DNA of 64,000 bases, from contig CAWAXG010000002.1 in assembly GCA_963785755.1 (NCBI GenBank), forward strand, positions 817,128 to 881,127. Direction: 5' to 3'. Both the position numbers and the translations under genes were made by a program. The notes beneath the pieces are model-generated. The model saw nothing but the letters and a program-made list of their open reading frames with translations. It did no database searches and had not been told where the DNA came from. Positions 1,473-62,137 of the stretch are shown here, piece by piece; position 1 is the first letter of the stretch, and each line of letters begins with the position of its first letter. Source of the DNA: an uncultured Acidobacteriota bacterium. Its GTDB lineage: Bacteria > Acidobacteriota > Vicinamibacteria > Vicinamibacterales > 2-12-FULL-66-21.

Positions 1473-1507
1473 GTCCCGAATCCCGAATCCCGAGTCCCGA
1501 GTCCCGA
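1473..1507 (+). repeat. tandem heptamer array (G/A)TCCCGA x5, ending 4 nt before the permease ATG
   Basis: gtcccga atcccga atcccga gtcccga gtcccga read directly. It is the reverse complement of the TCGGGAC/GGGACTC units at 3984-4090. Confidence 0.9.
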
Positions 1508-1511
1508 CGCT

Positions 1512-3983
1512 ATGCGACTACTCCCTACCCGAATTAGCCGTATTCTCCGCCGTTTCCTGCGCGCGCCCGGGTTTACATTCGTGGCCGTGCTCACGCTTGC
1601 GGCCGGGATTGGCGCCAACGCGGCCATTTTCGCGGTCGTTCGTGGCGTGCTCCTCAAGCCGCTGCCCTACCAGGAACCGGAGCGGCTGGTCTCGGTCTGG
1701 CACTCCGCCCCCGGCATGAACGTGCCGATGCTCAACCAGTCGCCCGCCACCTATTTCATCTACAAGGACGAGGGGCGGGTGTTCGAGCACATCGGCATCT
1801 GGAACGACACGGCGGTCACGGTGACCGGCGTCGGCGAGCCGGAGCGAATTGTCGCGATGCAGGTCACACAGGGGGTGCTCGACGCGCTCCGCGTCGAGCC
1901 GCTCATCGGCCGCCGGTTCACGGCTGACGACGATTCGCCGCGAACGCCGCGGCGCGTGATTCTCACGCATGCCTACTGGCAGCAGAAGTTCGGCAGCGAT
2001 TCGATGGTGGTCGGCCGCAACGTGACAATTGACGGCACACCCAGGGAGATCGTCGGCGTGCTGCCAGCCGATTTCCGCTTTCTCGACAGGCAGCTGCAGG
2101 TCGTGCTGCCGCTCCGATTCGACCGCGCGAAGCTCTTCGTCGGCAACTTCAGCTTCCAGGGGATTGCCCGCCTCCGGCCCGGCGTCACGATCGAGCAGGC
2201 GAACGCCGACGTCGCGCGCATGATTCCGCTCGTGATCGAACGGTTCCCGCTGCCCGGCGGCTTCACGAAAAAGATGTTCGAAGAGATCCGGATGGCACCG
2301 AACACCCGTCCTCTCTCGGCTGACGTGATCGGCGACGTCGGCCGCATCCTCTGGGTGCTCCTGGGAACGGTCGGCCTCGTTCTCCTCATCGCCTGTGCGA
2401 ACGTCGCGAATCTGTTTCTCGTTCGCGCGGAGTCACGGCAGCAGGAGCTCGCAATTCACGCCGCGCTCGGCGCCAGCTGGCGGCAGGTCGCGTGGGAGCT
2501 GCTTTCCGAGAGCCTCGCCCTCTCGCTTGCAGGCGGCGCTGCGGGCGTGCTGCTCGCGTATGCGGGTGTCCGCGGGCTCGTCGCGATGGCGCCACAGGGG
2601 CTGCCCCGGCTGGCCGACATCTCGATCGATCCGCTCGTGCTCCTCTTCACCGCAGGGATCTCGCTCCTCGCCGGCCTGCTGTTCGGGTTGATCCCGGTCG
2701 TGAAGTTCGCGACGCCGCACCTGGCCGGAGCGCTGAAGGAAGGCGGCCGCCTGTCGAGCGCCGGGCGGACGCGGCACCGCGCGCGGAATGCCCTGGTGGT
2801 CGCCGAAATCGCGCTCGCCGTCGTGCTGCTCGTCGCCTCGGGCTTGATGATCCGCACGTTCCAGGCCATGCGCCAGGTCCATCCCGGGTTCGCAAGTCCC
2901 GCCGACGTGCTGACCTTCCGGGTCTCGATTCCGTCGTCTCTCGTGTCCGATCCGGAGGCCACGACGCGGATGCATCAGCAGATCGCGGAGCGCCTCGAAC
3001 AGCTTCCCGGCGTGACGTCGGTGGGCGTGACGTCCTCGATCACGATGGACGGATCGAATTCCAACGATCCGATCTTCGTCGAAGATTTTCCGGGACCGGG
3101 CGGACGGATCCCACCGCTCCGCCGGTTCAAATCGATCGGGGCCCGCTACTTCGAGACGATGGGCAATCCGGTGGTGGCGGGACGGGCGCTGACCTGGAAC
3201 GACAGCCTGGAGCGCGCGACGGTCGTGATGGTCAGCGAGAACTTTGCCCGCGAGTTCTGGAAGGAGCCGTCGGCCGCGATCGGCCGCCGCATCAGGCAGA
3301 ACACGACCGATCCGTGGCGCACGATCGTCGGCGTCGCCGCGGATGAACGCGACAACGGTGTCGCCCAAGCTGCGCCGGCAATCGTCTACTGGCCGATGCT
3401 GCTCAAGGACTTCTGGGGCACTCCGCTGGAGGTGCGGCGGGAAATGGCTTATGCGGTGCGAAGCGGCCGTCCGGAGTCGGCGACGCTGCTCGAGGAGATT
3501 CAGCAGGCGGTGTGGTCGGTCAACTCCAATCTGCCCGTCGCCCGCGTCCGCACGCTGACCGAGATCCAATCGCGATCGATGGCCCAGACCTCGTTCGCGC
3601 TCGTCATGCTCGGCATCGCTGCCGCGGTCGCGCTGCTCCTCGGCGTCGTCGGCATCTACGGCGTGATCTCTTACGTCGCCACGCAGCGCACCCGCGAAAT
3701 CGGCATCCGGATGGCGCTCGGCGCCGCCGCCCGCGACGTCGGCAGCCTGTTCCTGCGGCATGGCCTGATCCTCGTCACCATCGGGGTCGTCCTCGGCACG
3801 ATCGCGGCGGCGCTGCTGACGCGAGTGATGAGTACGCTGCTGTTCGGCGTCAGCTCGATGGATCCCGCGACGTACGCCATCGTGGCCATCGGCCTGGCGG
3901 CGACGGCCCTGCTCGCAAGCTACCTGCCGGCGCGCCGCGCCGCCCGCATCGATCCCGCTACGGCGCTTCGGTGGGAGGCTTAG
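1512..3983 (+). CDS. ABC transporter permease, MacB-like / ADOP family (FtsX domains)
   Basis: ORF 1188..3983. In-frame ATG 1512 gives [40 protein letters not shown], the usual N-terminus of this family. Two FtsX-type TM clusters flank a large periplasmic region. C-terminus ...[13 protein letters not shown]. Confidence 0.85.
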
Positions 3984-4225
3984 GATCGGGACTCGGGGGT
4001 CGGGGCTCGGGACTGGGTCGTTCGGGACTCGGGACTCGGGGCTGGGGATCGGGATCGGTGATCGGGGTCGGGGACTCGCGGGTCTGGGTGGTTACGGGTC
4101 GGCTCCCCCGGGACGTGGGACTCCGGTCACAGCCTGCCGCGTCACAGCCTGCGCGCGATCGAAGGCCTGCGCGGAGCGCGAAGGCGGGCGCAGCGCGAAG
4201 GCGCGAAGCGCGAAGGCGGGGTGTC
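3984..4225 (+). repeat. Type II composite intergenic element, copy A
   Basis: Starts directly after the TAG at 3981-3983. About 15 degenerate GGGACTC/NNTCGGG heptamers (3984-4090), then core GGTGGTTACGGGTCGGCTCCCC..GGGACTCCGGTCACAGCCTGCCGCG, then GTCACAGCCTGC x2, then a GCGCGAAGG-type array (~4155-4221). The core aligns with the reverse complement of 38281-38400. Confidence 0.8.
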
Positions 4226-5511: not shown

Positions 5512-5585
5512 CGAAGGGTGTGTCGAATCAGGGGGTCGCCGACCGACAACTACGTAGTGCGGCAAATCTCGGAGGCAGGTCTACG

Positions 5586-5700
5586 AATTGCGCTTCGCGC
5601 TGCACGACGGCGACGACGGCACGACGTCACAAAGGCCCCGGGTGAAATTTTTCACGTCGTGCCGTCGTGCCGTCGTGCCTTCGTGCGGCGCGATAGCGCC
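5586..5700 (+). repeat. Type I intergenic mosaic element, copy 2 (long near-perfect hairpin)
   Basis: TTGCGCTTCGCGC (5588-5600). Arm CACGACGGCGACGACGGCACGACGT (5603-5627) is complementary to ACGTCGTGCCGTCGTGCCGTCGTG (5654-5677) apart from one bulge. The loop holds an inner palindrome GTGAAA-TT-TTTCAC. Ends with GCGGCGCGATAGCGCC (5685-5700). Confidence 0.85.
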
Positions 5701-5733
5701 TCGTCAGCCGATTCGGACGATTAGAGAAACGTT

Positions 5734-6069
5734 ATGAAATATCTGTGCCTGGTCTACATCGAAGAAGCGAAGCTGCACAACCTGCGGGACAGCGAGTGCG
5801 CGGCGTACAGCAGCGGGCTGAAGAACAAGGGGGTGCTGCTCGGCGCCGAACCGCTTCAGCCGGTCGAAACCGCGACCACGGTGCGAGTCCGGAATGGCAA
5901 GGTTTCCATCACCGACGGTCCCTTCGCCGAAACCAAAGAGCAGCTCGCGGGTTTCTATCTCATCGACGCGCGCGATCTGAACGACGCAATTCAGGTCGCG
6001 TCGAAGATCCCGCCCGCCCGTGAGGGGAGCATCGAGGTTCGCCCGGTCAGAGAGCTGATGGTGGACTAG
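5734..6069 (+). CDS. YCII-related (DGPF) domain protein
   Basis: 111 aa. ...NGKVSITDGPFAETKEQLAGFYLIDARDLNDAIQVA... is the DGPF/YCII signature. It lies downstream of a COG4941-type sigma factor, a pairing I know as recurrent. Confidence 0.85.
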   Translation: MKYLCLVYIEEAKLHNLRDSECAAYSSGLKNKGVLLGAEPLQPVETATTVRVRNGKVSITDGPFAETKEQLAGFYLIDARDLNDAIQVASKIPPAREGSIEVRPVRELMVD

Positions 6070-6102: not shown

Positions 6103-7395
6103 CTACTTGCTAAGCGACACGTCCTTCGTCTCGCCGATGGCCAGCAGACCCACGAGCGTGAGCGCAGCGGCGGCTGAAAGGTAGTAGCCGACGTAGTGGA
6201 GCCCGTAGCGCTGCGCGAGCCAGGTCGCGACGTACGGCGCGAGCGACGCACCGAAGATGCCCGCCAGGTTGAACGTCACCGAGCTCCCGGTGTAGCGCAC
6301 TCTGGTCGGAAACAGCTCCGACAATGCGGTCCCCAGGGGTCCATAGGTGAGCCCCATCAACGACAGGCCGATCACCGTCGCCAGGGTCGCACCCGCGAGG
6401 CCCGCCGACAACATCGGACCCATCACGAGTCCGAACACACCGATCGCGATGGTGACCCCGATCAACGTCCGCCGGCGGCCGCGCTCGGCGAGGACGGCGC
6501 TGAGCGGAATCGTCGCCGCGAAGAACACGATCCCGACGAGCTGAATCAGCAGGAACGTCGTCCGGCTGTAGCCGAGTGCCGTCGTGGCCCACGACAGCGC
6601 GAAGACCGTGACGAGATAGAAAAGCACGAACGTCGCCAGCGAGACGAGAATGCCGAGCACCAGCGTTCGCGGGTACTCCCGGAATACCACCAGGATGGGC
6701 ACCTTGGCGCGATCCTCACGGGTGACCGCTTCGCGGAAGACCGGGGTCTCGGTGATCGTCAGCCGGACGTACAGCCCGACGACCACGAGCGCCGCGCTCG
6801 CGAGGAACGGGAACCGCCATCCGTACGCGAAGAACTGATCGTTGGTCAGCCAGCGCGACAGCGCGAGAAACACGGCGCCCGAAAGGAAGAACCCGATCGG
6901 GGCGCCCAGCTGCGGAAACATTCCGTACCATGCGCGTTTCCCGGGCGGCGCGTTCTCCACCGCCAGGAGCACGGCGCCGCCCCACTCGCCGCCAAGTCCA
7001 AGGCCCTGACCGAAACGGCACAGCGCGAGCAGGGCCGGCGCGGCGATGCCGATCGTCTCGTAGGTCGGGAGCAGCCCGATGACCACGGTCGAAAACCCCA
7101 TCGTGAGCAGTGCCGCGACGAGTGTGGTCTTGCGTCCGATGCGATCGCCGAAATGTCCGAACAGCGCCGACCCGATCGGCCGCGCCAGGAACGCGATCGC
7201 GAACGTCGCCAGAGACGCCAGAATGGCCGAGCCCGGATCCGACGCGGGAAAGAACAGCCGCGGAAACACGAGCACCGCCGCCGTCGCATAGATGTAGAAG
7301 TCGAAGAATTCGATCGTCGTCCCGACCAGGCTCGCGAACAGGACCTGCGCAGGAGTGTTGACCCTGTGGCCGGCGGTGGAGTGCGGAGCGGTCAT
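6103..7395 (-). CDS. MFS transporter (metabolite:H+ symporter type)
   Basis: ORF 6103..7461. ATG at 7395 gives MTAPHSTAGHRVNTPAQVLFASLVGTTIEFFDFYIY... MFS loop motif GHFGDRIGRKTTL and about 12 hydrophobic segments. Confidence 0.85.
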   Translation of the reverse strand: MTAPHSTAGHRVNTPAQVLFASLVGTTIEFFDFYIYATAAVLVFPRLFFPASDPGSAILASLATFAIAFLARPIGSALFGHFGDRIGRKTTLVAALLTMGFSTVVIGLLPTYETIGIAAPALLALCRFGQGLGLGGEWGGAVLLAVENAPPGKRAWYGMFPQLGAPIGFFLSGAVFLALSRWLTNDQFFAYGWRFPFLASAALVVVGLYVRLTITETPVFREAVTREDRAKVPILVVFREYPRTLVLGILVSLATFVLFYLVTVFALSWATTALGYSRTTFLLIQLVGIVFFAATIPLSAVLAERGRRRTLIGVTIAIGVFGLVMGPMLSAGLAGATLATVIGLSLMGLTYGPLGTALSELFPTRVRYTGSSVTFNLAGIFGASLAPYVATWLAQRYGLHYVGYYLSAAAALTLVGLLAIGETKDVSLSK

Positions 7396-12430: not shown

Positions 12431-12556
12431 GGCGAGGCTCGCAGAGCTTCGGCTGCGACCGAGCCGACGAGCGGCGGCGGGCAACTCCAAGGAGCACAGA
12501 ATCCATCGACCGAGAGTGTTTTGGGAGTTGGAAGTTGGAGGTTGGAGGTTGACAGA
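12431..12556 (+). repeat. Type IV intergenic element, copy 1
   Basis: GGCTCGCAGAGCTTCGGCTGCGACCGAGCCGACGAGCGGCGGCGGGCAACTCC ... GTGTTTTGGGAGTTGGAAGTTGGAGGTTGGAGGTTGACAG. It aligns with the reverse complement of 61951-62060. Contains a C(TTCG)G tetraloop hairpin and a CAACTCC/GGGAGTTG inverted pair. Confidence 0.75.
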
Positions 12557-12645
12557 TTCCCTGGACCGTTCGCGTGCGCCCTATCGTGCCTCTTTCTTTG
12601 GATTGGGACTGCCGCCGTGGTCGGCGCCGGTCGCGATCCGCGGTT

Positions 12646-25505: not shown

Positions 25506-25635
25506 TGCTCAACGCGGGCGACGACTTACGGATCCGTCGCGCCACCGAGCCGTCGTGCCGGCCTGATGCATAAAGCGCAAGTCGTGGCTTCTGTGAAACG
25601 AGGTGATCATTTCAAAAAAACATTGACCTCTCCTC

Positions 25636-25822
25636 ACCCCGTGGAATGAAAATTCCGAGCATCCCTCGAACCCGGCCGACGACGGCGCTGCCGCGCTCAC
25701 GATGACGGCACGACGGCACGACGGTTTCAGACAATGCTTCGTGCCTTCGTGACGTCGTGTCTTCGTGCGGGCGCGAAGCGCAACTCGTGTTTTCTGAGCA
25801 GTTGGAGGTTGGAAGTTGACCT
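25636..25822 (-). repeat. Type I intergenic mosaic element, copy 3
   Basis: GTGGAATGAAAATTCCGAGCATCCCTCGAACCCGGCCGACGACGGCGCTGCCGCGCT, CACGATGACGGCACGACGGCACGACGG, loop, CTTCGTGCCTTCGTGACGTCGTGTCTTCGTGCGGGCGCGAAGCGCAACTCGTGTTTTCTGAGCAGTTGGAGGTTGGAAGTTGACC. It aligns along its whole length with 50106-50295. Confidence 0.85.
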
Positions 25823-38280: not shown

Positions 38281-38460
38281 GCGTCCCGCCTACGCGCTGC
38301 GCGCTTCGGCGCGGCAGGCTGCGATCGGAGTCCCCAGTCAGGGGAGCCCCCGAGCCCCGTAACCACCCCTGACCCATGATCCCCGATCCCCGATCTACAA
38401 AACCCGCCCCGAGTCCCGAGTCCCGAGACAAGCCCGAGCCCCCAGTCCCGAGTCCCGTGC
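38281..38460 (-). repeat. Type II composite intergenic element, copy B
   Basis: The reverse complement reads GGGACTCGGGACTGGGGGCTCGGGC...GATCGGGGATCGGGGATC...GGGGTGGTTACGGGGCTCGGGGGCTCCCC..GGGGACTCCGATCGCAGCCTGCCGCGCCGAAGCGCGCAGCGCG, colinear with 3984-4225. It ends 1 nt from stop codon 38462-38464. Confidence 0.8.
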
Positions 38461-38461
38461 C

Positions 38462-39412
38462 TCAGTCCTTCTTGATAACGCCGAGCGGCACGCGGGTGCC
38501 GTGCGGCGAGGTCCTCGCGACCTGCGCGAAGTAGCGGTACGCGATGGCTGAGATCTCGCGCACGGTCGCGTCCATGTCATCGGGGCCGTAGTTGACCATC
38601 ACCGCGATCGCGTAGGGCGCGCCAGGAACGTCGACCAGCCCCCACGCCGTCTGCACGCCTTCGATCCCGCCGGGCTTCCAGGCGACCGCGACACCGCCAG
38701 GAATCGGCTCGCGGAACGGGCCGCCCTTGGGGATCTCGAGAATCTTCTTCACCCTGGCGCAGGACGCCGCGCCCATCGGCAGTTCACATTTCGCCAGCCG
38801 CACCATCACGTCCGCCGCTTCGCGCGGCGTCGAGATGTTCTCGTTCCCTTTCGCGCTCTCCTCCGGGCGGATCATCTTGCGCTGCAGACGCGTCTGCGGC
38901 GCGCCGAGATCGGCCATCGTCTTCGACACGCGCTCCATGCCGAGACGGTCGATCAACATGTTCGTCGCGGTGTTGTCGGAGAGGACGATCATCGGGATCG
39001 CGAGATCGTCCAGCGAGAGCTCGGATCCCCGATCCGTGAAGTGCTGGAGGAGACCGCTGCCGCCGACCTGGTCGGCCGCCCGCAGCGGCATCCGCTCCGT
39101 GAGCTTCAGATCACCGCTGTCGGCGCGCCGAAACAGCTCGATCAGGATTGGAATCTTGATCGCGCTGCCCTGGGGAAACACCAGCGTCTCGTTGACGCCG
39201 AACCGCTCGCCGCTCGTGATATCGACGACCGCCAGCCCCACGACCCCAGGCGCGGCGTCCGCGACACGCTGAAGATCACGCTGCAGCTTCCCGGCGAGCT
39301 GCTTCCGGTGCGGAGGCTGCGACAGGGCCGCGCCCGCGCCGCAGGCGATCGCGAGCACGACGGCCATCAGAGATCGACAACCACTTCGGCATGGCCGGGG
39401 AGTGTATCGCAC
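38462..39412 (-). CDS. class A beta-lactamase-like serine hydrolase
   Basis: 316 aa. SxxK (GSAIK), SDN (VLSDNTA) and KxG-like (WKPGG) motifs; N-terminal signal/lipobox-like LAIAC. Confidence 0.8.
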   Translation of the reverse strand: MRYTPRPCRSGCRSLMAVVLAIACGAGAALSQPPHRKQLAGKLQRDLQRVADAAPGVVGLAVVDITSGERFGVNETLVFPQGSAIKIPILIELFRRADSGDLKLTERMPLRAADQVGGSGLLQHFTDRGSELSLDDLAIPMIVLSDNTATNMLIDRLGMERVSKTMADLGAPQTRLQRKMIRPEESAKGNENISTPREAADVMVRLAKCELPMGAASCARVKKILEIPKGGPFREPIPGGVAVAWKPGGIEGVQTAWGLVDVPGAPYAIAVMVNYGPDDMDATVREISAIAYRYFAQVARTSPHGTRVPLGVIKKD

Positions 39413-43019: not shown

Positions 43020-43523
43020 GGCCTTTCCTCCTGCCCAAGCGGGCTGCGAACGGCGGTGTCGCCGACAATGATCGCCGGGCGCGCGCTACGACCGTCGAGG
43101 CATACGGTGCGGATCATCTATCAAAGAACGGAATCTGGTTGCCGGTCGACAGCCGCGCGCCGCCGCCCATCCTCGACATGCGAGGAAGTATAGAGGGAAA
43201 GTCCCCAGCGGTGTTGTGAGATCCACGGCCGCCGTCGCGGACTTCGTGCCGCCGTTCGAGGGATCCGGAAACGTCTCGGTCGTCCGACGAGCGCAGACCG
43301 CCGACGTTCAGTTGGAACGCTGGTCGCCGTTGGCTCCGCACGGTCGACTATCCGACTTGTCGAAGGTGAATGGCTTGTCGCCAGAGAACGCGCGGTTTGC
43401 CTTCGACTGGCGGACATACGCCGACGTGCCAGAGTGTTTCGCACCACCAAACGCGCGCGTGCTCGCCCGCGCCGAGTCATCAGTCCACCCAGCCCTCGGA
43501 CTGAGAATTCTCCTGCTTGTCTT

Positions 43524-43553
43524 CCTCCCGTCCTCCCGTCCTCCCGTCCTCCC
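43524..43553. repeat. tandem octamer array (CCTCCCGT)x3.5
   Basis: cctcccgt cctcccgt cctcccgt cctccc followed by TGTGAA. The same unit and the same 3' flank (CTCC.TGTGAA) occur at 298-326. The complement is a G3N5G3N5G3N5G3 motif. Confidence 0.85.
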
Positions 43554-50080: not shown

Positions 50081-50105
50081 ATTGGGAGTCCTCCTGACCT
50101 CCGCT

Positions 50106-50295
50106 CACCCGTGGGATAAGAATTCCGAGCATCTCCAGAACCCGGCCGACGACGGCGCTGCCGCGCTGCACGACGGCACGACGGCACGATGTAGAGGTTT
50201 TCAACAGATCCTTCGTGAACTTCGTGACGTCGTGCCGTCGTGCGGCGCGAAGCGCAACTCGTATTTTCTGGGCAGTTGGGAGTTTTCACTGCTGG
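50106..50295 (-). repeat. Type I intergenic mosaic element, copy 4
   Basis: Colinear with 25636-25822. Arms GCACGACGGCACGACGGCACGA (50168-50189) and TCGTGACGTCGTGCCGTCGTGC (50222-50243) are complementary except at two positions. GCGGCGCGAAGCGCAACTCGTATTTTCTGGGCAGTTGGGAG tail. Confidence 0.85.
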
Positions 50296-54784: not shown

Positions 54785-57721
54785 GCTGGCTCCTGAACGA
54801 GTGACCGGATCAATTCGGCCGGATGCATCGCGCGCACCTCGGTGAAGTCGGCAATCTGGTGCCGGCATGAAGTACCGCCCGCGGCAAGGATCGAATTCGC
54901 GTCGAGCTGACGCGCGGCGGGAAGCAGTCGGCGCTCTCCGATCGCGCGGGACACCTCGAAATGGTCGCGGCCGTAGCCGAACGATCCAGCCATCCCGCAG
55001 CATCCCGCGTCCAGATCGACGACCGTCGCTCCTGGAACTCGAGCGAGCAGCGCCCTGGCCGGGCCGACGCGGCCCATGGCTTTCTGGTGGCAATGACCGT
55101 GGAGAAGAATGCGGGACGGCCCGGTGCGCAGTTCGAGCATCGCCGGCGCGGCCTGCCACTCGCTTTCGAGAAACTCTTCGAACAGCACCGACCGTTCGGC
55201 AACACGCTGCGCCCGCCGCTGGTCGTCGCCCCGGAGCAGTGACGGGATGTCCTCGCGAACGGCGGAGAGACAGCTGGGTTCGAAGAACACGATCGGCACT
55301 CCATGCTCGGCCAGCGGATAGAGCTCGCTGGTCGTGAATCCGGCCTGGCGGCGCGCGGCTCCGAGGAGGCCCTGCGAAATGAAGGGCCGCCCGCAGCATG
55401 AGGACGGGGCGAGCTCGACGGTGAATCCCGCCATTTCGAGCACTTCCAGGCCGGCCATCCCGATCGATGGCGAGTAGAAGTTCGTGAACGTGTCGTTGAA
55501 GATTGCCACCCGGCGATCCGCACTCGTGCTCCGGCCTCGCCGGCGGCGTGGCCCGCGCCCGGGCCGTCCCTGCGCGACGCGCGCAAACGTTCGCGATGCC
55601 CACGCCGGCGGCATGCGGCGGCTGTCAATCCCGAGGAGTCGTTCGTTCAGCCAGCGCATCGGTCCGCTGCGCGCCACGACGTTCGACAGCGGCGCAAAAC
55701 GGCTGCCCCATCGGGACAGATCGTGGATGTGTCCGAGCATGTGGGCACGCAACGACGTGCCATGACGGCGCCAGTAGTCGGCGAGGAACTCGCTCTTGAA
55801 ACGGGCGACGTCGACGCCCACCGGACACTCGGCCTTGCACGCGCGGCATTCGAGACAGAGATCGAGCACCGCGCGAACACCCTCGTCGCCGAGGCCGGCC
55901 TCGTCGATTCGGCCGGCCATCGCCAGCCGCAGGACGTTCGCCCGCCCGCGCGTCGAGTGCGCTTCCTCACGCGTCGCCATATACGACGGGCACATCGTCC
56001 CGTCCAGCGTCTTGCGGCAAGCGCCGAGCCCGCTGCACATCTCGATGGCCCCGGGCAGCCCGCCGTGCTCCGAATAGTCGAAGAACGTGACCGGCTGGAG
56101 GGTGCGATACGCAGGCCCATACCTCAGATTGGCGGTCAGCGGCGGCGCGTCCACGATCTTGCCGGGATTGAAGATGCCGTCGGGATCGAACGTCTTCTTG
56201 ACGCGGCGGAAGGCGTCATAGAGGACGGGCCCGAACATCTTCTCCATGAAGGGACTGCGAACCAGACCGTCGCCGTGCTCACCGGACAGCGCGCCGCCGA
56301 ACGCCAGCACCAGATCGGCACTGGCCGACGCGATCGACTCGAACTGCCGGACACCCGCCTCTGTCTTCAGGTTGACGACCGGCCGTACGTGCAGACATCC
56401 GACCGATGCGTGCGCGTAGACGCCTGCAGAGGTGCCGTGCCGCTGCACCATCGCGAGAAACTGGTCGATGTAGTCGCGCAGCTTGTCCGGCGCGACGGCG
56501 GTATCCTCGACGAACGAGAGCGACTTGGCATCACCTTTCATCGCCATCGAGAGGCCGAGCGCGGCTTCTCGAACCGACCAGATGGCGCTCTGTGCCGACC
56601 CGTCCACCGCGCGATGGTAGCGATACCCGAATCGCCGCGCGGCGAGATCGTGCTCGAGCGCGTCGAGACGGCGCGGCAGATCGTCGGCGGTGTCCGCGTA
56701 GAACTCCACGCAGAGGAGCGCCGCCGGCTCCCCTTCGATGAACGTCCGCCGCAGCCGGTCGAGCGCCGGACTCTGCTTCGTGTGATCGAGGATGAACCGA
56801 TCCATGACTTCGACGGCCGACGGTCCATGCCCGAGGATGGCCGGCGTCGCCGCGAGCGCGTCGAGCAGATCGGCGAACTGAATCGCCAGCACTGCCTTGA
56901 ATTTCGGCAGCGGCACGAGCCCGATCTTGGCTTCCAGGACGACGCCGAGGGTGCCTTCGGAGCCGACCATCAGCTTCGTCATGTTGAACGGCCGGTCGCG
57001 GGAGACGAACGCATCCAGGTTGTATCCGCCAACTCGGCGCAGCACCTTCGGATAGTGGCGTTCGATCTCCCCGACGCACGCGCTCACCGTGGCGCGGACC
57101 TCGCGGTAACACGCGCCCTCGAGCGTGTCCCTGGCGCACACATCATCGAGCTCGTTCGCGTCGAGCGGGCGAAAATGGGCCAGCGATCCGTCCGACAGCA
57201 CGACCTGCTGTTCGATTACGTGATCGATGGTCTTCCCATAAAGCACCGAGCGGGCGCCCGCCGAGTTGTTGGCCATCATCCCGCCGATCGTGGCGCGGCT
57301 GGCGGTCGAGATGTCCGGCGCGAAGCGAAGGCCGTCCTGCCGGAGCATCGCGTTCAGCTCGTCGAGCACGATGCCGGGCTCGACGCGCGCCCAGCGCTCC
57401 GACCTGTTCACCTCGAGCACGCGGTTGAAGTACTTCGAGGTGTCGACGATGAGGCCGCTGCCGATCGCTTGACCCGCCTGCGAGGTGCCGCCGCCTCTCA
57501 TCGTGATCGGACACCGGTGTCTGCTGCAGGCCTGCACGACGCGAATGACGTCTTCGCGGGATTTCACGACCACGACGCCCAGCGGTTCGATCTGATAGAC
57601 GCTGGCGTCGGTGGAGTGACAGCGCCCGCGTAATCTCGTCGAAGCGCACTTCGCCTTCGATCTCGTGTTCGAGGTCGCGGCGGAGGGCGCCGACGTCGAC
57701 ATGTGTGAGCGCTGCGGTCAT
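54781..57721 (-). CDS. FAD-binding (GlcD-like) oxidase fused to Fe-S / CCG-domain (GlcF-like) module (one frame change near the 5' end)
   Basis: 54781..57702 plus the first ~34 codons in the 57143..57754 frame (MTAALTHVDVGALRRDLEHEIEGEVRFDEITRAL then (Y)STDASVYQIEPLG); switch at ~57617. MRGGGTSQAGQ, CLECRACKAECP, and C-terminal Cys-rich CCG-type repeats. Confidence 0.8.
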
Positions 57722-57733
57722 GCAGGACGGCCG

Positions 57734-57762
57734 ATTATGGGCGCTGACGCTCATCGGTTCAA
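57734..57762 (-). promoter_or_regulatory. candidate promoter of the FAD/Fe-S oxidase gene (short leader)
   Basis: The minus strand reads TTGAAC (57762-57757), a 17-nt spacer, then CATAAT (57739-57734). The ATG at 57721 is only ~12 nt after the -10. The -35 is the outermost repeat unit of the palindrome. Confidence 0.35.
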
Positions 57763-57931
57763 GGGTTCAGGGGTTCAAGGGTTCAGGGGTTCGGGTTCAA
57801 GGGTTCAGAGGTTCAGGAGGTTCAGCGAGCCGTTCGAAGATTCGAAGAATTCAGCCGCTCGCTGAACCTCCGAACCTCTGAACTCTTGAACCCGAACCTC
57901 TGAACCCTCTGAACCCTTGAACTCTTGAACC
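57756..57931. repeat. ~175-bp near-perfect palindrome built from GGTTCA(A/G)G units
   Basis: Left arm 57756-57830 (ggttcaa gggttcag gggttcaa gggttcag gggttcg ggttcaa gggttcag aggttcag gaggttcag cgagc). Centre CGTTCGAAGATTCGAAGAATTCAGCC. Right arm 57857-57931 is its reverse complement apart from a few substitutions and 1-nt indels. Confidence 0.9.
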
Positions 57932-57945
57932 GACGAGCGTAAGTT
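57917..57945 (+). promoter_or_regulatory. candidate promoter of the class V aminotransferase gene (short leader)
   Basis: TTGAAC (57917-57922), a 17-nt spacer, then TAAGTT (57940-57945); ATG at 57956. Mirror image of the arrangement on the other side of the palindrome. Confidence 0.35.
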
Positions 57946-57955
57946 ACGATCGTGC

Positions 57956-59209
57956 ATGCCGAGCGGCCGCCACTTCCTCCAGATTCCTGGTCCGACCAAC
58001 ACCCCCGACCGCGTGCTGCGCGCGCTGGCGCAGCCGACGATCGATCATCGCAGCGCCGAGTTCGCGGCGCTCGGGCGTGAGGTGCTCGCCGGCATCAAGC
58101 GGATCTTCCAGACTTCGGCGCCGGTGGTGATCTTCCCCGCCTCCGGCAGCGGCGCATGGGAGGCGGCCCTCGTCAACACCCTGTCGCCGGGCGATCGGGT
58201 CCTGGCCTTCGACATCGGAGAATTCGCCAGGGGCTGGACGGATGTGGCGCGCAGGCTCGGGCTCGACGTCGAAGTGACGCCCGGAGACTGGCGGCACGGC
58301 GTCGATCCGGCGGCGCTCGAAACGAGGCTCGGCGAAGATCGCGAGCATCGCATTCGAGCGGTGCTCGTCGTTCACAACGAAACGTCCACCGGAGTGACGA
58401 GCCGACTGCCGGAGATTCGAAAGGCCATCGACCGCGCCGGCCATCCGGCGCTGCTGCTCGTCGATGCGGTGTCGTCGCTCGGGTCCATCGAGCTCCGCCA
58501 CGACGACTGGGGGCTCGACGTGACGCTGTGCGGATCGCAGAAGGGGCTGATGCTGCCGCCGGGCCTCGGCTTCACCGCGCTCAGCGAGCGGGCGCTGACG
58601 GCGTCACGGTCCGCCCGCCTGCCGCGGTCGTATTTCGCGTGGGAGCAGATGCTGCCCGCCAACGCGAACGGTTTCTTTCCGTACACGCCAGCCACCAACC
58701 TGCTGTTCGGGCTGCGCGAAGCCCTCGCGATGCTGGAAGAGGAGGGCCTCGATCACGTCTTCGCGCGTCATCGCCGGCTCGCCGAAGCCGCACGGGCTGC
58801 CGTCCACGCCTGGGGCCTCGACATCGCCTGTCAGCGTGAGGACGAGTACAGCCCGTCAGTGACGGCCGTCATGATGCCTGACGGGTATGATGCCGATCGA
58901 CTTCGCTCGACCATCCTCGAACGGCTCAACATGTCGCTCGGCGCCGGCCTCGGCCGATTCAAGGGGACGGCGTTCCGGATCGGCCATCTCGGCGACTTCA
59001 ACGAGCTGATGTTGATGGGCACGCTCTGTGGCGTCGAGATGGGGCTCGCCCTCGCCGGCATCCCGTCGTCGCCTGGCGGTGTAGATGCGGCGATGAAGGT
59101 GCTCGTCGCTACGTGCTACGTGCCACGTGCTACGTGCCACGTGCTCTTCGTGCTACGTGCTACGTGCTACGTGCTCACGTGCTCGTGCGACGTGCTCAGC
59201 TGCACGTGA
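57956..59209 (+). CDS. class V aminotransferase (serine-glyoxylate / alanine-glyoxylate type)
   Basis: 417 aa. ...LCGSQKGLMLPPGLGF (PLP-lysine motif). The last 33 aa (ATCYVPRATCHVLFVLRATCYVLTCSCDVLSCT) are a translation of the ACGTGCT repeat. Confidence 0.85.
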   Translation: MPSGRHFLQIPGPTNTPDRVLRALAQPTIDHRSAEFAALGREVLAGIKRIFQTSAPVVIFPASGSGAWEAALVNTLSPGDRVLAFDIGEFARGWTDVARRLGLDVEVTPGDWRHGVDPAALETRLGEDREHRIRAVLVVHNETSTGVTSRLPEIRKAIDRAGHPALLLVDAVSSLGSIELRHDDWGLDVTLCGSQKGLMLPPGLGFTALSERALTASRSARLPRSYFAWEQMLPANANGFFPYTPATNLLFGLREALAMLEEEGLDHVFARHRRLAEAARAAVHAWGLDIACQREDEYSPSVTAVMMPDGYDADRLRSTILERLNMSLGAGLGRFKGTAFRIGHLGDFNELMLMGTLCGVEMGLALAGIPSSPGGVDAAMKVLVATCYVPRATCHVLFVLRATCYVLTCSCDVLSCT

Positions 59210-59278
59210 GCACGTGAGCACGTAGGACGTAGCACGAAAAGCACGTGAGGACGTAGCGCGTTGCACGTAGCACGTGGC
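59105..59278. repeat. ~175-bp imperfect palindrome built from ACGTGCT-type heptamers, centred on CAGCTG
   Basis: gctacgt gctacgt gccacgt gctacgt gccacgt gctcttc gtgctacgt... up to CAGCTG at ~59197-59202, then the complementary series (cacgtgag cacgtgag cacgtagg acgtagc...). At least six CACGTG hexamers. Lies between convergent genes. Confidence 0.9.
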
Positions 59279-60062
59279 TCAGCGCCCGGCAAACCGCGGC
59301 GGGCGCTTCGCCTACGAACGCCGCGACGCCCTCGCGGAAATCGTCGCTGGCGTAACACGACGCCACGAGATCGTCGAGGTCGGGATGGTCGGCGCGCCGC
59401 CCGAGACCGATCCGGCGAATGGCTTCCTTCGTCGCGCGCAGGGTCAACGGCGCCTTGTCTGCCAGCGCCTCCGCCAGCTCCCGGACCGCGGCATCGATGG
59501 TGGACGCCTCCGCGAGGCGGGTGATCAGCCCCAGCGCGCCGGCTTCCGTGGCGTCGAGAAATCGCGCGGTAAAGATCAGGTCCTTGGTTCGCGCCGGCCC
59601 GATCAGATCCACGAGACGCGCATAATTCGCGGCTGATAGACAATTACCCAGTGTCCGGGCGATCGGGACGCCGAATCGCGCGTCGGGCGTGCACACGCGC
59701 AGATCGCATGAGAGCGCAAGGATGCAGCCGCCCCCTGCCGCGACGCCGCGCACCTGGGCGATGGTCGGCACCGACACCCGTTCGAGGCGCTCGATCACCT
59801 GTTCCATCCGCCGCTCGTAGGCGAGGCCATCGCCGGCCGTCGTGAACGCGGTGAATTGACTGATGTCGGTGCCGGCCACGAACGCCTCGCCGGCGCCGCG
59901 CAGCACCAGGACGCGGACGCGGTCGTCGGCGTCGACCTCGTCGCAGGCGGCGGCGAGGGCGTCGTACATTGGCCAGGTCATCGCGTTGCGCGCCTCGGGA
60001 CGATTGAACGTCAGGAACGCGATGCGCCCGTCGATTGCGAACAACGCCTCGGAAGTGGACAC
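59279..60062 (-). CDS. enoyl-CoA hydratase/isomerase (crotonase) family protein (frame change near the 3' end)
   Basis: ORF-track version 59196..60173. In-frame GTG 60062 gives (M)STSEALFAIDGRIAFLTFNRPEARNAM. LVLRGAGEAFVAGTDI. The canonical end (K)RPPRFAGR* with TGA at 59281-59279 appears only after a frame change near ~59308; otherwise the ORF reads into the repeat. Confidence 0.75.
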
Positions 60063-60089: not shown

Positions 60090-61280
60090 ATGAGCTCGAG
60101 CCGGACGGCGCTCGAAGGGATTCGCGTGCTGGACGTCACACAGGTGATGGCCGGCCCGTTCTGCGCGATGCAACTATGCGATATGGGCGCGGACGTGATC
60201 AAGGTGGAGCCGCCCGGCGGCGACTCGACGCGCCGCATGGTCGGCAGCACCGGCCAGGACAGCGCCGGATTCAACGCCGTCAATCGCGGCAAGCGCGGCA
60301 TCGTCCTCGATCTCGCGACGACGCGCGGTCAGGACGCGTTCCGGCGGCTTCTCTCCCGCACCGACATCCTGATCGAAAACTACCGGCCCGGCGTGATGCG
60401 CCGATTCGGCCTGGACTATGAAACCCTGGCCGCGCGCCATCCATCGCTGATCTATGCCTCGATTTCGGGGTCCGGCCAGACCGGCCCCGAGGCATCGAAG
60501 GGCGGATTCGATCTGATCGCGCAGGGTGAGTCAGGACTGATGTCGGTCACCGGAGAAGCCGGCGGTCCTCCGATCAAGATTGGCGTTCCGGTTACCGACC
60601 TCGGCGCCGCGATGTTCGCGCTCGCGGCAATCCTCGCGGCCCTTCATTACCGCACGCGAACCGGCATCGGCCAGCACATCGACACATCGCTGCTCGAAGC
60701 CGGGATCGCGTTCTCGGTCTGGGAGTCGGCCGAGTACTTTTCCGAGGGGAAACCGCCGGCGCCTCTCGGATCGGCGCATCGAATGCTCGCGCCCTACCAG
60801 GCCATCCGCTGTGCCGACGGCTACATCACCCTGGGAGCAGGCACCGATCGGTTGTTTCAACGCCTGTGTGAGGTCCTCGGGCATCCGGAGTGGACGGCGG
60901 ATCCGGATTTTGCCAACGACACCCTTCGAGTCCGGAATCGTGCCCCTCTCATCGAGCGAATCGAGCAGATCACGATCGGGGAACCCTGCGATCGCTGGCT
61001 CGCGCAGCTCTCCGCCGCGGGCGTGCCCTGCGGCCGCATCAACAGCTACGCGGACACCTTCGCCGATCCGCAGGTCCGCGCCCGGGGAATGATCGTCGAT
61101 GTCGACCACCCGACGCTCGGGCGGCTGCGAACGCTCGGCTCGCCGATCAAGATGTCCGAGACACCGCCGACAGTGGGACGGCGTGCGCCGCTGCTCGGCG
61201 AGCACACCGCAGAGGTCTTGAGGGAAGCCGGCTGCGACGAGAGCGAGATCGCCGCGATCGTGGCCGACGCCGTCATTTGA
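60090..61280 (+). CDS. family III CoA-transferase (CaiB/BaiF type)
   Basis: ORF 59856..61280. ATG 60090 gives MSSSRTALEGIRVLDVTQVMAGPFCAMQLCDMGADVIKVEPPGGD. Confidence 0.9.
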   Translation: MSSSRTALEGIRVLDVTQVMAGPFCAMQLCDMGADVIKVEPPGGDSTRRMVGSTGQDSAGFNAVNRGKRGIVLDLATTRGQDAFRRLLSRTDILIENYRPGVMRRFGLDYETLAARHPSLIYASISGSGQTGPEASKGGFDLIAQGESGLMSVTGEAGGPPIKIGVPVTDLGAAMFALAAILAALHYRTRTGIGQHIDTSLLEAGIAFSVWESAEYFSEGKPPAPLGSAHRMLAPYQAIRCADGYITLGAGTDRLFQRLCEVLGHPEWTADPDFANDTLRVRNRAPLIERIEQITIGEPCDRWLAQLSAAGVPCGRINSYADTFADPQVRARGMIVDVDHPTLGRLRTLGSPIKMSETPPTVGRRAPLLGEHTAEVLREAGCDESEIAAIVADAVI

Positions 61281-61818: not shown

Positions 61819-61950
61819 CAGGCCCTCCATCCCCGCATGGTCTCATGGCTGGTGGGTGTTCGCTCGGTACCGGACTTGTTTTGCAGGGACAAGACGGGGG
61901 ATGAATGCTTCGGCGCCTTCAGGCAAGGAGGGTGCAAGAACACGCCACGG

Positions 61951-62060
61951 CGAAAACTCCCAACTTCCAACCACCAACTCCCAAGGCGCCCACAGCGATC
62001 GACCAAGGCGCGAGTTGCCCGCCGCCGCTCGGAACGGTCGCAGGCGACCTCTGGCGAGCC
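61951..62060 (-). repeat. Type IV intergenic element, copy 2
   Basis: The reverse complement reads GGCTCGCCAGAGGTCGCCTGCGACCGTTCCGAGCGGCGGCGGGCAACTCGCGCC...CCTTGGGAGTTGGTGGTTGGAAGTTGGGAGTTTTCG, colinear with 12431-12556. Confidence 0.75.
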
Positions 62061-62137
62061 TGTGGCGCGTATCGTGCGTGCGAGGCGGGAGGTTGATTGT
62101 CGCGCTGCGTTTTTCAACAACCTGCTAAAAGCGGACC

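Follow-up and report, generated by a model that had tools for sequence, protein, structure and literature searches.

Does a large palindrome that fills the space between two divergent genes serve their regulation, or is it a repeat element that has come to lie there? We addressed this question for an uncultured soil bacterium of the Vicinamibacterales (Acidobacteriota) in a stretch of 64,000 nt from contig CAWAXG010000002.1 (66% G+C; referred to here as the window, with coordinates counted from its first nucleotide). The palindrome, built of GGTTCARG units, occupies positions 57744-57943. It separates an FAD-linked oxidase gene (start codon at 57719-57721, minus strand), in which a GlcD-like FAD domain is joined to Fe-S and CCG domains, from a class-V aminotransferase gene of the serine/alanine-glyoxylate transaminase type (start codon at 57956-57958, plus strand). 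The reading that we favor, with moderate confidence, is that of a discrete and dispensable hairpin-type repeat cassette flanked on either side by a -10 box of a compact bidirectional promoter that is predicted to produce near-leaderless mRNAs. The cassette is one of a population of elements that consist of arrays of 7-9 nt units at gene boundaries, several of them inverted pairs of ~90-200 bp. Since an unrelated palindrome is present at the same spot in a strain with 99.6% identical flanks, its appearance is that of a repeat element with fast turnover, of a generally known kind, and not that of a purpose-built regulatory device.

Architecture of the palindrome and variation within the species

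An earlier reading, made from the sequence alone (here termed the sequence-only reading), had described a 175-bp near-perfect palindrome with ~75-nt arms of nine to ten GGTTCARG units that fills the divergent promoter region, namely, the 234 nt that separate the ATG of the oxidase (57721, minus strand) from that of the aminotransferase (57956, plus strand). The palindrome, its units, its location, and the size of the gap were all borne out, whereas its dimensions had to be revised. Alignment of the arms, to which no strand is assigned, resulted in a length of 200 bp, made up of a left arm of 87 nt (57744-57830), a center of 26 nt (57831-57856), and a right arm of 87 nt (57857-57943), with nine units in each arm. 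Global alignment paired 80 of 88 columns (91%), leaving 6 mismatches and 2 one-base gaps, in agreement with the few substitutions and 1-nt indels noted before. The left arm starts with a 12-nt non-repeat terminus, CTGACGCTCATC, followed by the units GGTTCAAG GGTTCAGG GGTTCAAG GGTTCAGG GGTTCG GGTTCAAG GGTTCAGA GGTTCAGGA GGTTCAG and then by CGAGC; the right arm is its reverse complement, with the nine units in identical order. The inverted symmetry runs past the units into the non-repeat termini (12-13 nt; CTGACGCTCATC and GACGAGCGTAAG), which belong to the arms: positions 57744-57777 pair with 57910-57943. Tandem Repeats Finder detected the left array at 57756-57825 (8.9 copies of GGTTCAGG, period 8) and the right array at 57862-57931 (8.9 copies of the reverse complement of GGTTCAGG). 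Both arrays are noncoding; the distance from the array end to the ATG is 34 nt for the oxidase and 24 nt for the aminotransferase. Within each array the units are placed head to tail, and the two arrays converge on opposite strands, with the G-rich arm first. The center, CGTTCGAAGATTCGAAGAATTCAGCC, contains both features ascribed to it previously, a duplication (two copies of TTCGAAGA at 57833-57848) and a GAATTC site (57847-57852).

The two-unit motif matched 11 times in the window, compared to 0.19 matches expected, and all matches were at the palindrome. Folded as single-stranded DNA, the palindrome reached -97.1 kcal/mol, as compared to -30.5 ± 3.3 kcal/mol for shuffled sequences (z = -19.9). 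Its units are contiguous and without unique spacers and did not pass a test for CRISPR arrays. The Rfam search resulted in no gathering-score match anywhere in the window; at a permissive threshold, sub-threshold matches to microRNA precursors were obtained on both strands, which means a generic hairpin.

The two arms have in common an odd 6-nt unit, GGTTCG, at position 5, as well as the inner end GGTTCAG-CGAGC. Because the order of variant units is shared, the palindrome probably derives from the inverted duplication of an already diversified array or from arm-to-arm conversion; it is not the product of two independent expansions. The GGTTCARG array would have grown by replication slippage and, given this shared order, would have been turned into a palindrome by inverted duplication or template switching, which may still be editing it.

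To retrieve relatives of the same species, we used the cluster of aminotransferases at 90% identity, which comprised ten proteins, and compared the corresponding contigs. Three of the assemblies (L081-L083) keep the GGTTCARG palindrome, and the differences are mostly in the inner left arm, where they read GCTTC(AGT)CGGTTCAAGGGTTCAGCCG in place of the GGGTTCAGAGGTTCAGGAGGTTCAGCGAGCCG of the window. Their right arm carries two point substitutions only, present in L081, L082, and L083 alike; a single change in the center was seen in L081. Variation in unit number between strains, a check that had been proposed in the sequence-only reading, was indeed seen, with one extra GGTTCARG unit in L083 and unit-level differences among the three. 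The hairpins of these strains are weaker than that of the window (-68 to -73 versus -97 kcal/mol), indicating that pairing is not maintained by compensatory change. The inner left arm of the window is the exact complement of its right arm, which looks like the templated correction of a quasi-palindrome.

The situation is different in three other samples (L084, L085, and L209), which keep both genes and contain, instead of the GGTTCARG array, an unrelated cassette of 188 bp. The identity of L084 to the window is 99.6% in the oxidase 5' region and 99.65% in the aminotransferase gene; the corresponding values for L085 are 97.6% and 97.7%. The homology of the L084 type to the window stops between 57743 and 57744 and resumes between 57941 and 57942. 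Homology between the two intergenic alleles was considered and rejected, as the Smith-Waterman score of the 188 bp against the 198 bp of the window was at the level of shuffled sequences (17 versus 16.4 ± 2.2). The alternative cassette is itself a palindrome, with arms of CCAACTY and RAGTTGG heptamers and additional smaller hairpins, and one of its arms together with 12 nt of flank is 92% identical to positions 12521-12559 of the window. Among the metagenome contigs that align to the oxidase flank in runs X1, X2, X5, and X8, only the GGTTCARG allele was seen. The species thus shows dimorphism at this site, with two palindromic array cassettes that are unrelated and of almost the same size. Which allele is present does not follow the divergence of the flanks, suggesting either an old polymorphism that recombination has shuffled or an exchange of cassettes. 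An unrelated cassette between near-identical flanks is also hard to reconcile with a GGTTCA-specific regulator or any sequence-dependent device. The GGTTCARG sites are not conserved with the genes in L084, L085, and L209, as operators or iterons would be, and the earlier suggestion that an oligomerizing regulator binds the palindrome was not upheld.

What is conserved at this locus lies outside the palindrome. The divergent arrangement of the oxidase and aminotransferase genes is kept in many Acidobacteriota, and in more than 12 orthologous loci motifs resembling -10 boxes are found 5-13 nt from the two start codons. The oxidase-side motif, GATTAT(A), reads TATAAT, GATAAT, or CATAAT on the gene strand, 9-13 nt from the ATG; in the window it is CATAAT (57734-57739, minus strand), 12 nt upstream of the ATG. 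The aminotransferase-side motif in relatives is TTACGAT, TTAGGAT, or CTACCAT (TAnnAT), 5-9 nt before the ATG, and corresponds to TACGAT (57945-57950, plus strand), 5 nt upstream of the ATG, in the window. The distant orthologues P0004, P0007, and P0010 have another upstream neighbor (Lactamase_B) and are not comparable for the oxidase side; they confirm the -10 box pair AGTATC...TTACGAT. Given this conservation and the agreement with the consensus, we predict that the motifs are back-to-back -10 boxes of near-leaderless mRNAs, and the sequence-only reading was probably correct in proposing such transcripts. Contigs of this organism are scattered in soil metatranscriptomes, and one of 155 nt ends at 57705, inside the oxidase gene.

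The spacer between the -10 boxes has no conserved sequence in the relatives, and its length varies from about 10 to 200 bp. L017 and L004 have a spacer of about 10 bp, L011 and L012 one of about 30 bp, L015 and L028 one of about 40-45 bp, and L006 one of about 85 bp. Several spacers contain arrays of their own: that of L001 (about 60 bp) has a degenerate CCCAAGT array with four copies (about 5930-5975), and that of L009 (about 110 bp) a palindrome of CACGAAGG and CCTTCGTG units (about 3190-3300). In L013, an array with 7.8 copies of CGAACGACT (5932-6001) lies between the -10 box and the ATG and reaches up to the latter. The variable length and the independent arrays in relatives suggest that the spacer is an unconstrained site that was filled repeatedly and independently by arrays of different units.

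Array elements elsewhere and the question of mobility

The palindrome is not the only structure of its kind. The window contains about 15 arrays of period 7-8, all at gene boundaries. This is illustrated by TCCCGAR x5, which stops 4 nt short of a MacB-type permease gene (ATG at 1512); by a GGGACTC-type array, which begins 2 nt past the stop codon of the permease gene; and by CCCGAGT x7.6, whose end comes within 4 nt of a beta-lactamase-family gene's stop codon. At least five loci in the window, including the palindrome at 57744-57943, are inverted pairs. Three are formed by units of the GCACGACG / CGTCGTGC type (5602-5686, about 25690-25775, and 50162-50249) and another by GTGCTAC and GCACGTA heptamers (59099-59278, about 180 bp). 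There are also dispersed families: an intergenic element of ~185 nt (25624-25805 and 50095-50279, 84% identical over 190 nt) and an element of ~160 nt (3979-4141 and the reverse complement of 38310-38465, 76% identical over 170 nt). Considering the arrays at gene boundaries and the dispersed families, the palindrome is one instance of a genome-wide feature.

Some further properties of these families were observed. The ~185-nt element, which contains a hairpin of GCACGACG / CGTCGTGC units, has partial copies at 5582-5710 and 210-258, and one copy ends in GGTTGGA-type units. Both copies of the ~160-nt element open with a G-rich heptamer array (GGGACTC or GGGGATC) 2-4 nt past a stop codon; its G-rich strand is the sense strand, which fits the position rule published for Xanthomonas.

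Two comparisons with other strains indicate that elements of this class can appear at new sites. In L084, a 195-bp hairpin element (6341-6535, corresponding to 61265-61269 of the window) is accompanied by a 5-bp duplication, CGACG. Its arms are CTTCCGCC and GGCGGAAG (-51 kcal/mol), it sits at the point where the genes for a CoA-transferase and a dioxygenase overlap in the window and in L085, both of which lack it. The second case is a compact CCAACTY / RAGTTGG palindrome in L081 (6990-7110), the counterpart of positions 61950-62110, at which the window, L082, and L083 have an extra hairpin of ~90 nt (CCGCC.../...GGCGG) nested in the right arm. The clustering of element sizes at 180-200 bp (200, 188, 195, about 185, and 180 bp) supports the same conclusion. 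Two minor observations are that the L084 insertion alters the C terminus of the CoA-transferase (400 versus 396 amino acids) and that part of 61950-62110 resembles positions 12435-12545.

These data bear on an alternative that we judge unlikely: the palindrome could be a nonautonomous mobile element, similar to transposable elements of the miniature inverted-repeat type (MITEs) or repetitive extragenic palindromic (REP) sequences, that transposed into the promoter spacer and was mobilized in trans by a hairpin-recognizing transposase. In its favor, the difference between the alleles ends exactly at the boundaries of the palindrome, the L084 hairpin and the nested hairpin at 61950-62110 appear to have been inserted, and the dispersed families share flanks, with five elements of 180-200 bp. 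However, no target-site duplication flanks 57744-57943, which is bordered by GGGCG on the left and (A)GTTACG on the right. A 15-nt direct repeat (57719-57733 and 57955-57969, 12 of 15 positions identical) was rejected as a target duplication, since the conserved -10 boxes lie between its two copies, the right one of which belongs to conserved coding sequence. In addition, the center of the palindrome has single-copy depth in four soil metagenomes, whereas the left arm attracts a 500- to 700-fold depth from contigs with unrelated flanks that diverge right at the array edge. The high-GC GGTTCARG pairs from metagenomes share neither the center nor the termini of the palindrome, and no empty site was seen for this locus, which is filled in two different ways. 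A transposase was not found either, no search aimed at one having been made.

REP sequences, such as those of enterobacteria, and the bacterial interspersed mosaic elements (BIMEs) that contain them, MITEs, and the Correia elements of Neisseria are short extragenic hairpins at gene boundaries that can be nested and polymorphic between strains, and Correia elements can give promoter hexamers to neighboring genes. All of these form families of conserved sequence with defined termini. MITEs are associated with target duplications; a REP is an imperfect palindrome of 20-40 nt with a conserved 5' tetranucleotide and an associated RAYT transposase. Unlike them, the element studied here consists of tandem short units, has a unique center and unique termini, and shows no duplication at its ends. 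We therefore rejected an assignment as a MITE, in view of the missing target-site duplication and of the absence of conserved copies in the soil metagenomes and the 64 kb of genome. An assignment as a REP/BIME, whose architecture differs from tandem units in 87-nt arms, is unlikely, although no search aimed at a RAYT gene was made. As for the origin of the cassette, insertion and growth in place would both be possible, and arrival would be slightly favored because other elements of the class show insertion polymorphism.

The orientation of the arms follows a rule. We scanned metagenomes for three GGTTCARG units, and the contigs among the matches listed had a G+C content of 37-70%. Among these matches, when a partner array was present within 600 bp, GGTTCA preceded TGAACC in at least about 14 pairs, and the reverse order occurred in 0. 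The GGTTCA-type arrays were on contigs L088, L092, L100, L107, L116, L126, L127, L130, L131, L138, L139, L147, L158, and L159. The other skewed inverted pairs on the same contigs, again among the matches listed, were G-rich first in 9 cases and C-rich first in 2. The clear single arrays of the window obey the same G-rich polarity, which agrees with the "convergent" pairs and position rules reported for Xanthomonas. Speculatively, the polarity could reflect selection against C-rich-first hairpins that expose Rho-loading sites or, equally speculatively, an origin mechanism that adds G-rich units to 3' ends.

Individual contigs showed additional features. On L107 (280-990 and 1540-1690) and L178 (57-1475), GGTTCA-array hairpins occur in series, about every 330 bp, and a small open reading frame (ORF) between the hairpins of L107 looks like the precursor of a ribosomal peptide (MAENKKTWVTPELIVLVRSKPEE...). 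Two low-GC GGTTCA array pairs (L130, 96-291; L141, 1225-1352) have centers of 130-200 nt with fragments that resemble, by eye, genes for four-helix-bundle proteins (23S rRNA intervening-sequence protein).

Several observations weigh against the reading as a dispensable fast-turnover cassette in an unconstrained spacer. The two alleles, at 198 and 188 bp, hardly differ in length, and the sizes of several elements fall together at 180-200 bp, which could reflect a spacing constraint or a mobilization mechanism and not neutral filling. A palindromic architecture is found in three independent fillings of the spacer (the window, the L084 type, and L009), and this recurrence could be due to selection for a hairpin. 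The G-rich-first polarity is strong, and slippage alone does not account for it. No second copy of the center or the termini was found in the soil metagenomes and the 64-kb window, and the status as an "element" is assigned by analogy. Finally, the promoter assignments are predictions drawn entirely from conservation and consensus.

A bolder interpretation, which we regard as rather improbable, is that the ~90-200-bp palindromes of short tandem units in this bacterium represent an undescribed class of insertional hairpin elements with many unit families, which nest in each other and can be swapped as whole cassettes between -10 boxes. Such elements would insert at gene boundaries, sometimes with a short duplication, and the G-rich-first polarity would record the mechanism of their origin. 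Candidate mechanisms would be repeat addition at the two 3' ends of a break, with subsequent head-to-head joining, and the action of a hairpin-recognizing transposase. The alternative cassettes would then serve as promoter-spacer modules that can be interchanged and by which expression of the flanking genes is set.

Promoter elements and possible roles of the hairpin

The sequence-only reading had proposed a built-in regulatory device, in which the outermost units supply the -35 boxes of two mirror-image promoters and the inner 140 bp serve as a platform for a cruciform, G-quadruplexes, or a regulator. We consider this model distinctly improbable. It has support on the oxidase side, where the outermost left unit supplies the -35-like hexamer TTGAAC (57757-57762, minus strand), 17 nt from CATAAT. 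A consensus scan of positions 57600-58100 identified TTGAAC (57762-57757)-17 nt-CATAAT as the single sigma-70-like site (minus strand, 9 of 12 positions), making it a plausible oxidase promoter. The part of the claim that concerns the aminotransferase did not stand. The same scan resulted in no sigma-70-like site on the plus strand, and the proposed -10 box TAAGTT (57940-57945) matches TATAAT at 3 of 6 positions; the box conserved in relatives is TACGAT. Furthermore, the terminal plus-side TTGAAC (57925-57930) is 9 nt from TAAGTT and not, as had been stated, 17 nt, a spacing that belongs to the penultimate unit (57917-57922). With respect to TACGAT, the terminal and penultimate TTGAAC are at 14 and 22 nt, respectively, and the two promoters are hence not mirror images. 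No -35-like sequence was conserved in the orthologous intergenic regions of any relative. Under the reading that we favor, the cassette would happen to provide the oxidase promoter with TTGAAC at 17 nt, would leave the aminotransferase promoter without a canonical -35 box, and would move the core promoters about 200 bp apart, thereby removing RNA polymerase occlusion.

The potential of the palindrome to form unusual structures also speaks for a device, as does its position. According to the established twin-domain model, transcription-derived negative supercoiling accumulates between divergent promoters, which is where the palindrome lies, and this intergenic region has been filled by palindromes more than once. 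The palindrome has a very strong hairpin potential, and a long inverted repeat with a short spacer (87-nt arms, 91% paired, 26-nt center) could in principle be extruded as a cruciform. However, a center of 26 nt and 9% mismatch make extrusion less favorable. Quadruplex-forming potential had been ascribed to both arms, on opposite strands, and was found in the left arm only: this arm has 6 regular G3+ runs, and its G3-4 runs, 4-5 nt apart, form the only canonical G-quadruplex motif of the element (57763-57803, plus strand), whereas the right arm has three C3 runs only and no canonical motif on the minus strand. Formation of a cruciform or a G-quadruplex is possible and does not appear to be selected. 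The decay of arm pairing in the sister strains and the replacement of the cassette by unrelated sequence at 99.6% flank identity likewise argue against a device.

A bidirectional transcription barrier or RNA hairpin, maintained by selection as an insulator, as a terminator without a U-tract, or as a protector of mRNA ends, is a very unlikely explanation. It would be consistent with the sister palindrome between convergent genes (59099-59278), the serial GGTTCA hairpins of L107 and L178 with the peptide precursor-like ORF in the L107 interval, and the occurrence of GGTTCARG-unit arrays in RNA-run contigs. On the other hand, both genes point away from the element, leaving nothing to terminate, and pairing is not conserved among strains. 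An intrinsic terminator was also rejected, since the scan of the region detected 0 terminator-like sites and no U-tract.

That the palindrome is an artifact of long-read assembly or sequencing can be dismissed almost with certainty and is already refuted for the palindrome as a whole: although the window has at least two one-base insertions relative to short-read contigs (57618 and 59311), the palindrome is present in the three further assemblies L081-L083, an 858-nt short-read contig of run X8 crosses it entirely, short-read contigs of X1, X2, and X5 extend from the oxidase flank into the left arm, and another of X5 extends from the right-arm end into the aminotransferase gene. At 57618, the additional base disrupts the reading frame of the oxidase (ALYSTDAS motif); it is missing from all short-read contigs that cover this position (X2, X5, and X8) and from one RNA-run contig. 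The additional base at 59311, which the short-read contigs covering it likewise lack, disrupts an enoyl-CoA hydratase gene at its 3' end. A split oxidase is present in L081 and L083 as well, and an intact one (979 amino acids) in L084, L085, and L209. Both insertions are probably long-read assembly errors. Because the window contains small errors or indels specific to the strain, one should not over-read differences of a single base between the arms, which remain uncertain.

Comparison with known repeats and further observations

Among known classes, the closest was described by Rehm et al. (2015; PMC4692102) for Xanthomonas and Nostoc and comprises intergenic G-rich simple sequence repeat (SSR) arrays of the heptamers GGGAATC and GGGGAYT, together with inverted pairs of such arrays. 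Xanthomonas has 70-75 convergent array pairs per genome, the unit number varies between species, and the function has not been established (PMC4692102). The shared features are head-to-tail units of 7-8 nt, noncoding and tens of bp from the starts or stops of ORFs; many convergent pairs able to form stem-loops; unit numbers and sequences that differ between close relatives; neighboring genes of ordinary function; G-tracts that may form G-quadruplexes, here with a canonical motif on the plus strand of the left arm; and a polarity in which the G-rich strand points into the intergenic region. In accordance, the GGGACTC/GGGATTC arrays of the window (1474-1507, 3986-4078, and 38408-38457) obey the published position rules. 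There are also differences. The element described here belongs to an Acidobacteriota bacterium, its unit is GGTTCARG (period 8) and not of the GGGNATC type, and it has 9 + 9 units, compared to a preference for 4. It lies between divergent ORFs, a location that is underrepresented in Xanthomonas and Nostoc, its arms are homologous unit by unit, and its genome contains several unit families side by side. For the Xanthomonas/Nostoc arrays, dimorphism of a whole cassette in one species is not described. The palindrome is thus of the same kind as these arrays and not of the same sequence family.

Other systems are more distant. The short tandemly repeated repetitive (STRR) heptanucleotide sequences of cyanobacteria, reportedly described by Mazel et al. 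in 1990, are intergenic tandem heptamers with several unit families per genome and without an established function. They share with the present arrays the intergenic tandem short units and the multiplicity of families; STRRs are, as far as we know, mostly direct arrays, and we know of no description of a palindromic arrangement between promoters such as the one found here. In the divergent hifA/hifB promoters of Haemophilus influenzae, TA repeats are located between the -35 and -10 boxes, and changes in unit number alter the spacing and switch expression. Phase variation by SSRs has been reviewed (PMC12721329). The similarity to hifA/hifB consists in a repeat tract in a bidirectional promoter region with a unit number that varies between strains, but the present arrays are not within the -35/-10 interval and have fixed outer ends, and unit changes do not alter the spacing. 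Phase variation of the spacing type was rejected, as none of the four strains differs in the position of the outer array ends and the arrays are upstream of the -35-like hexamer. Marine Beggiatoaceae have abundant intergenic TAACTGA heptamer repeats upstream of many unrelated genes, for which a regulatory role was proposed and not demonstrated (PMC4679880). These too are heptamer-scale arrays upstream of genes; unlike the arrays studied here, they are almost all direct (with one indirect set), AT-rich, and of a single unit family (PMC4679880).

The locus provides a conservation-based picture of what may be a compact, near-leaderless bidirectional promoter, with two -10 boxes and no conserved -35 box. 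The DNA between the boxes is a hot spot in which palindromic arrays appear, expand, and are exchanged between otherwise identical strains. Acidobacteria are, to our knowledge, among the most abundant soil bacteria, and their promoters and noncoding DNA are almost uncharted. Should the cassettes alter expression, uncultured soil populations would have in them a natural source of regulatory variation; should they be neutral, they would be a warning against reading function into striking palindromes as well as useful strain-level markers. The most interesting aspects are the cassette dimorphism within the species, the common element size, and the polarity of the arms.

With regard to the flanking genes, the aminotransferase of the window is 81-84% identical to proteins of metagenome-assembled genomes from Vicinamibacterales and other Acidobacteriota, and an exact sequence look-up retrieved no record for it. 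The locus occurs in soil and rhizosphere metagenomes. Downstream, the palindrome at 59099-59278 occupies the entire region from where the conserved part of the aminotransferase ends to the stop codon of the enoyl-CoA hydratase gene, which is convergent. The aminotransferase ORF runs into this palindrome, and its last ~35 residues are encoded by repeats; the proteins of the 90% cluster have lengths of either 386/387 or 417-424 amino acids. In L208, the aminotransferase and enoyl-CoA hydratase genes abut without a spacer, and the unit number of the 59099-59278 array differs in every strain. Octamer arrays of TCCTCCCG are found at 298-324 and 43523-43553 (96% identical over 27 nt); both are intergenic, and one of them sits in another divergent intergenic region.

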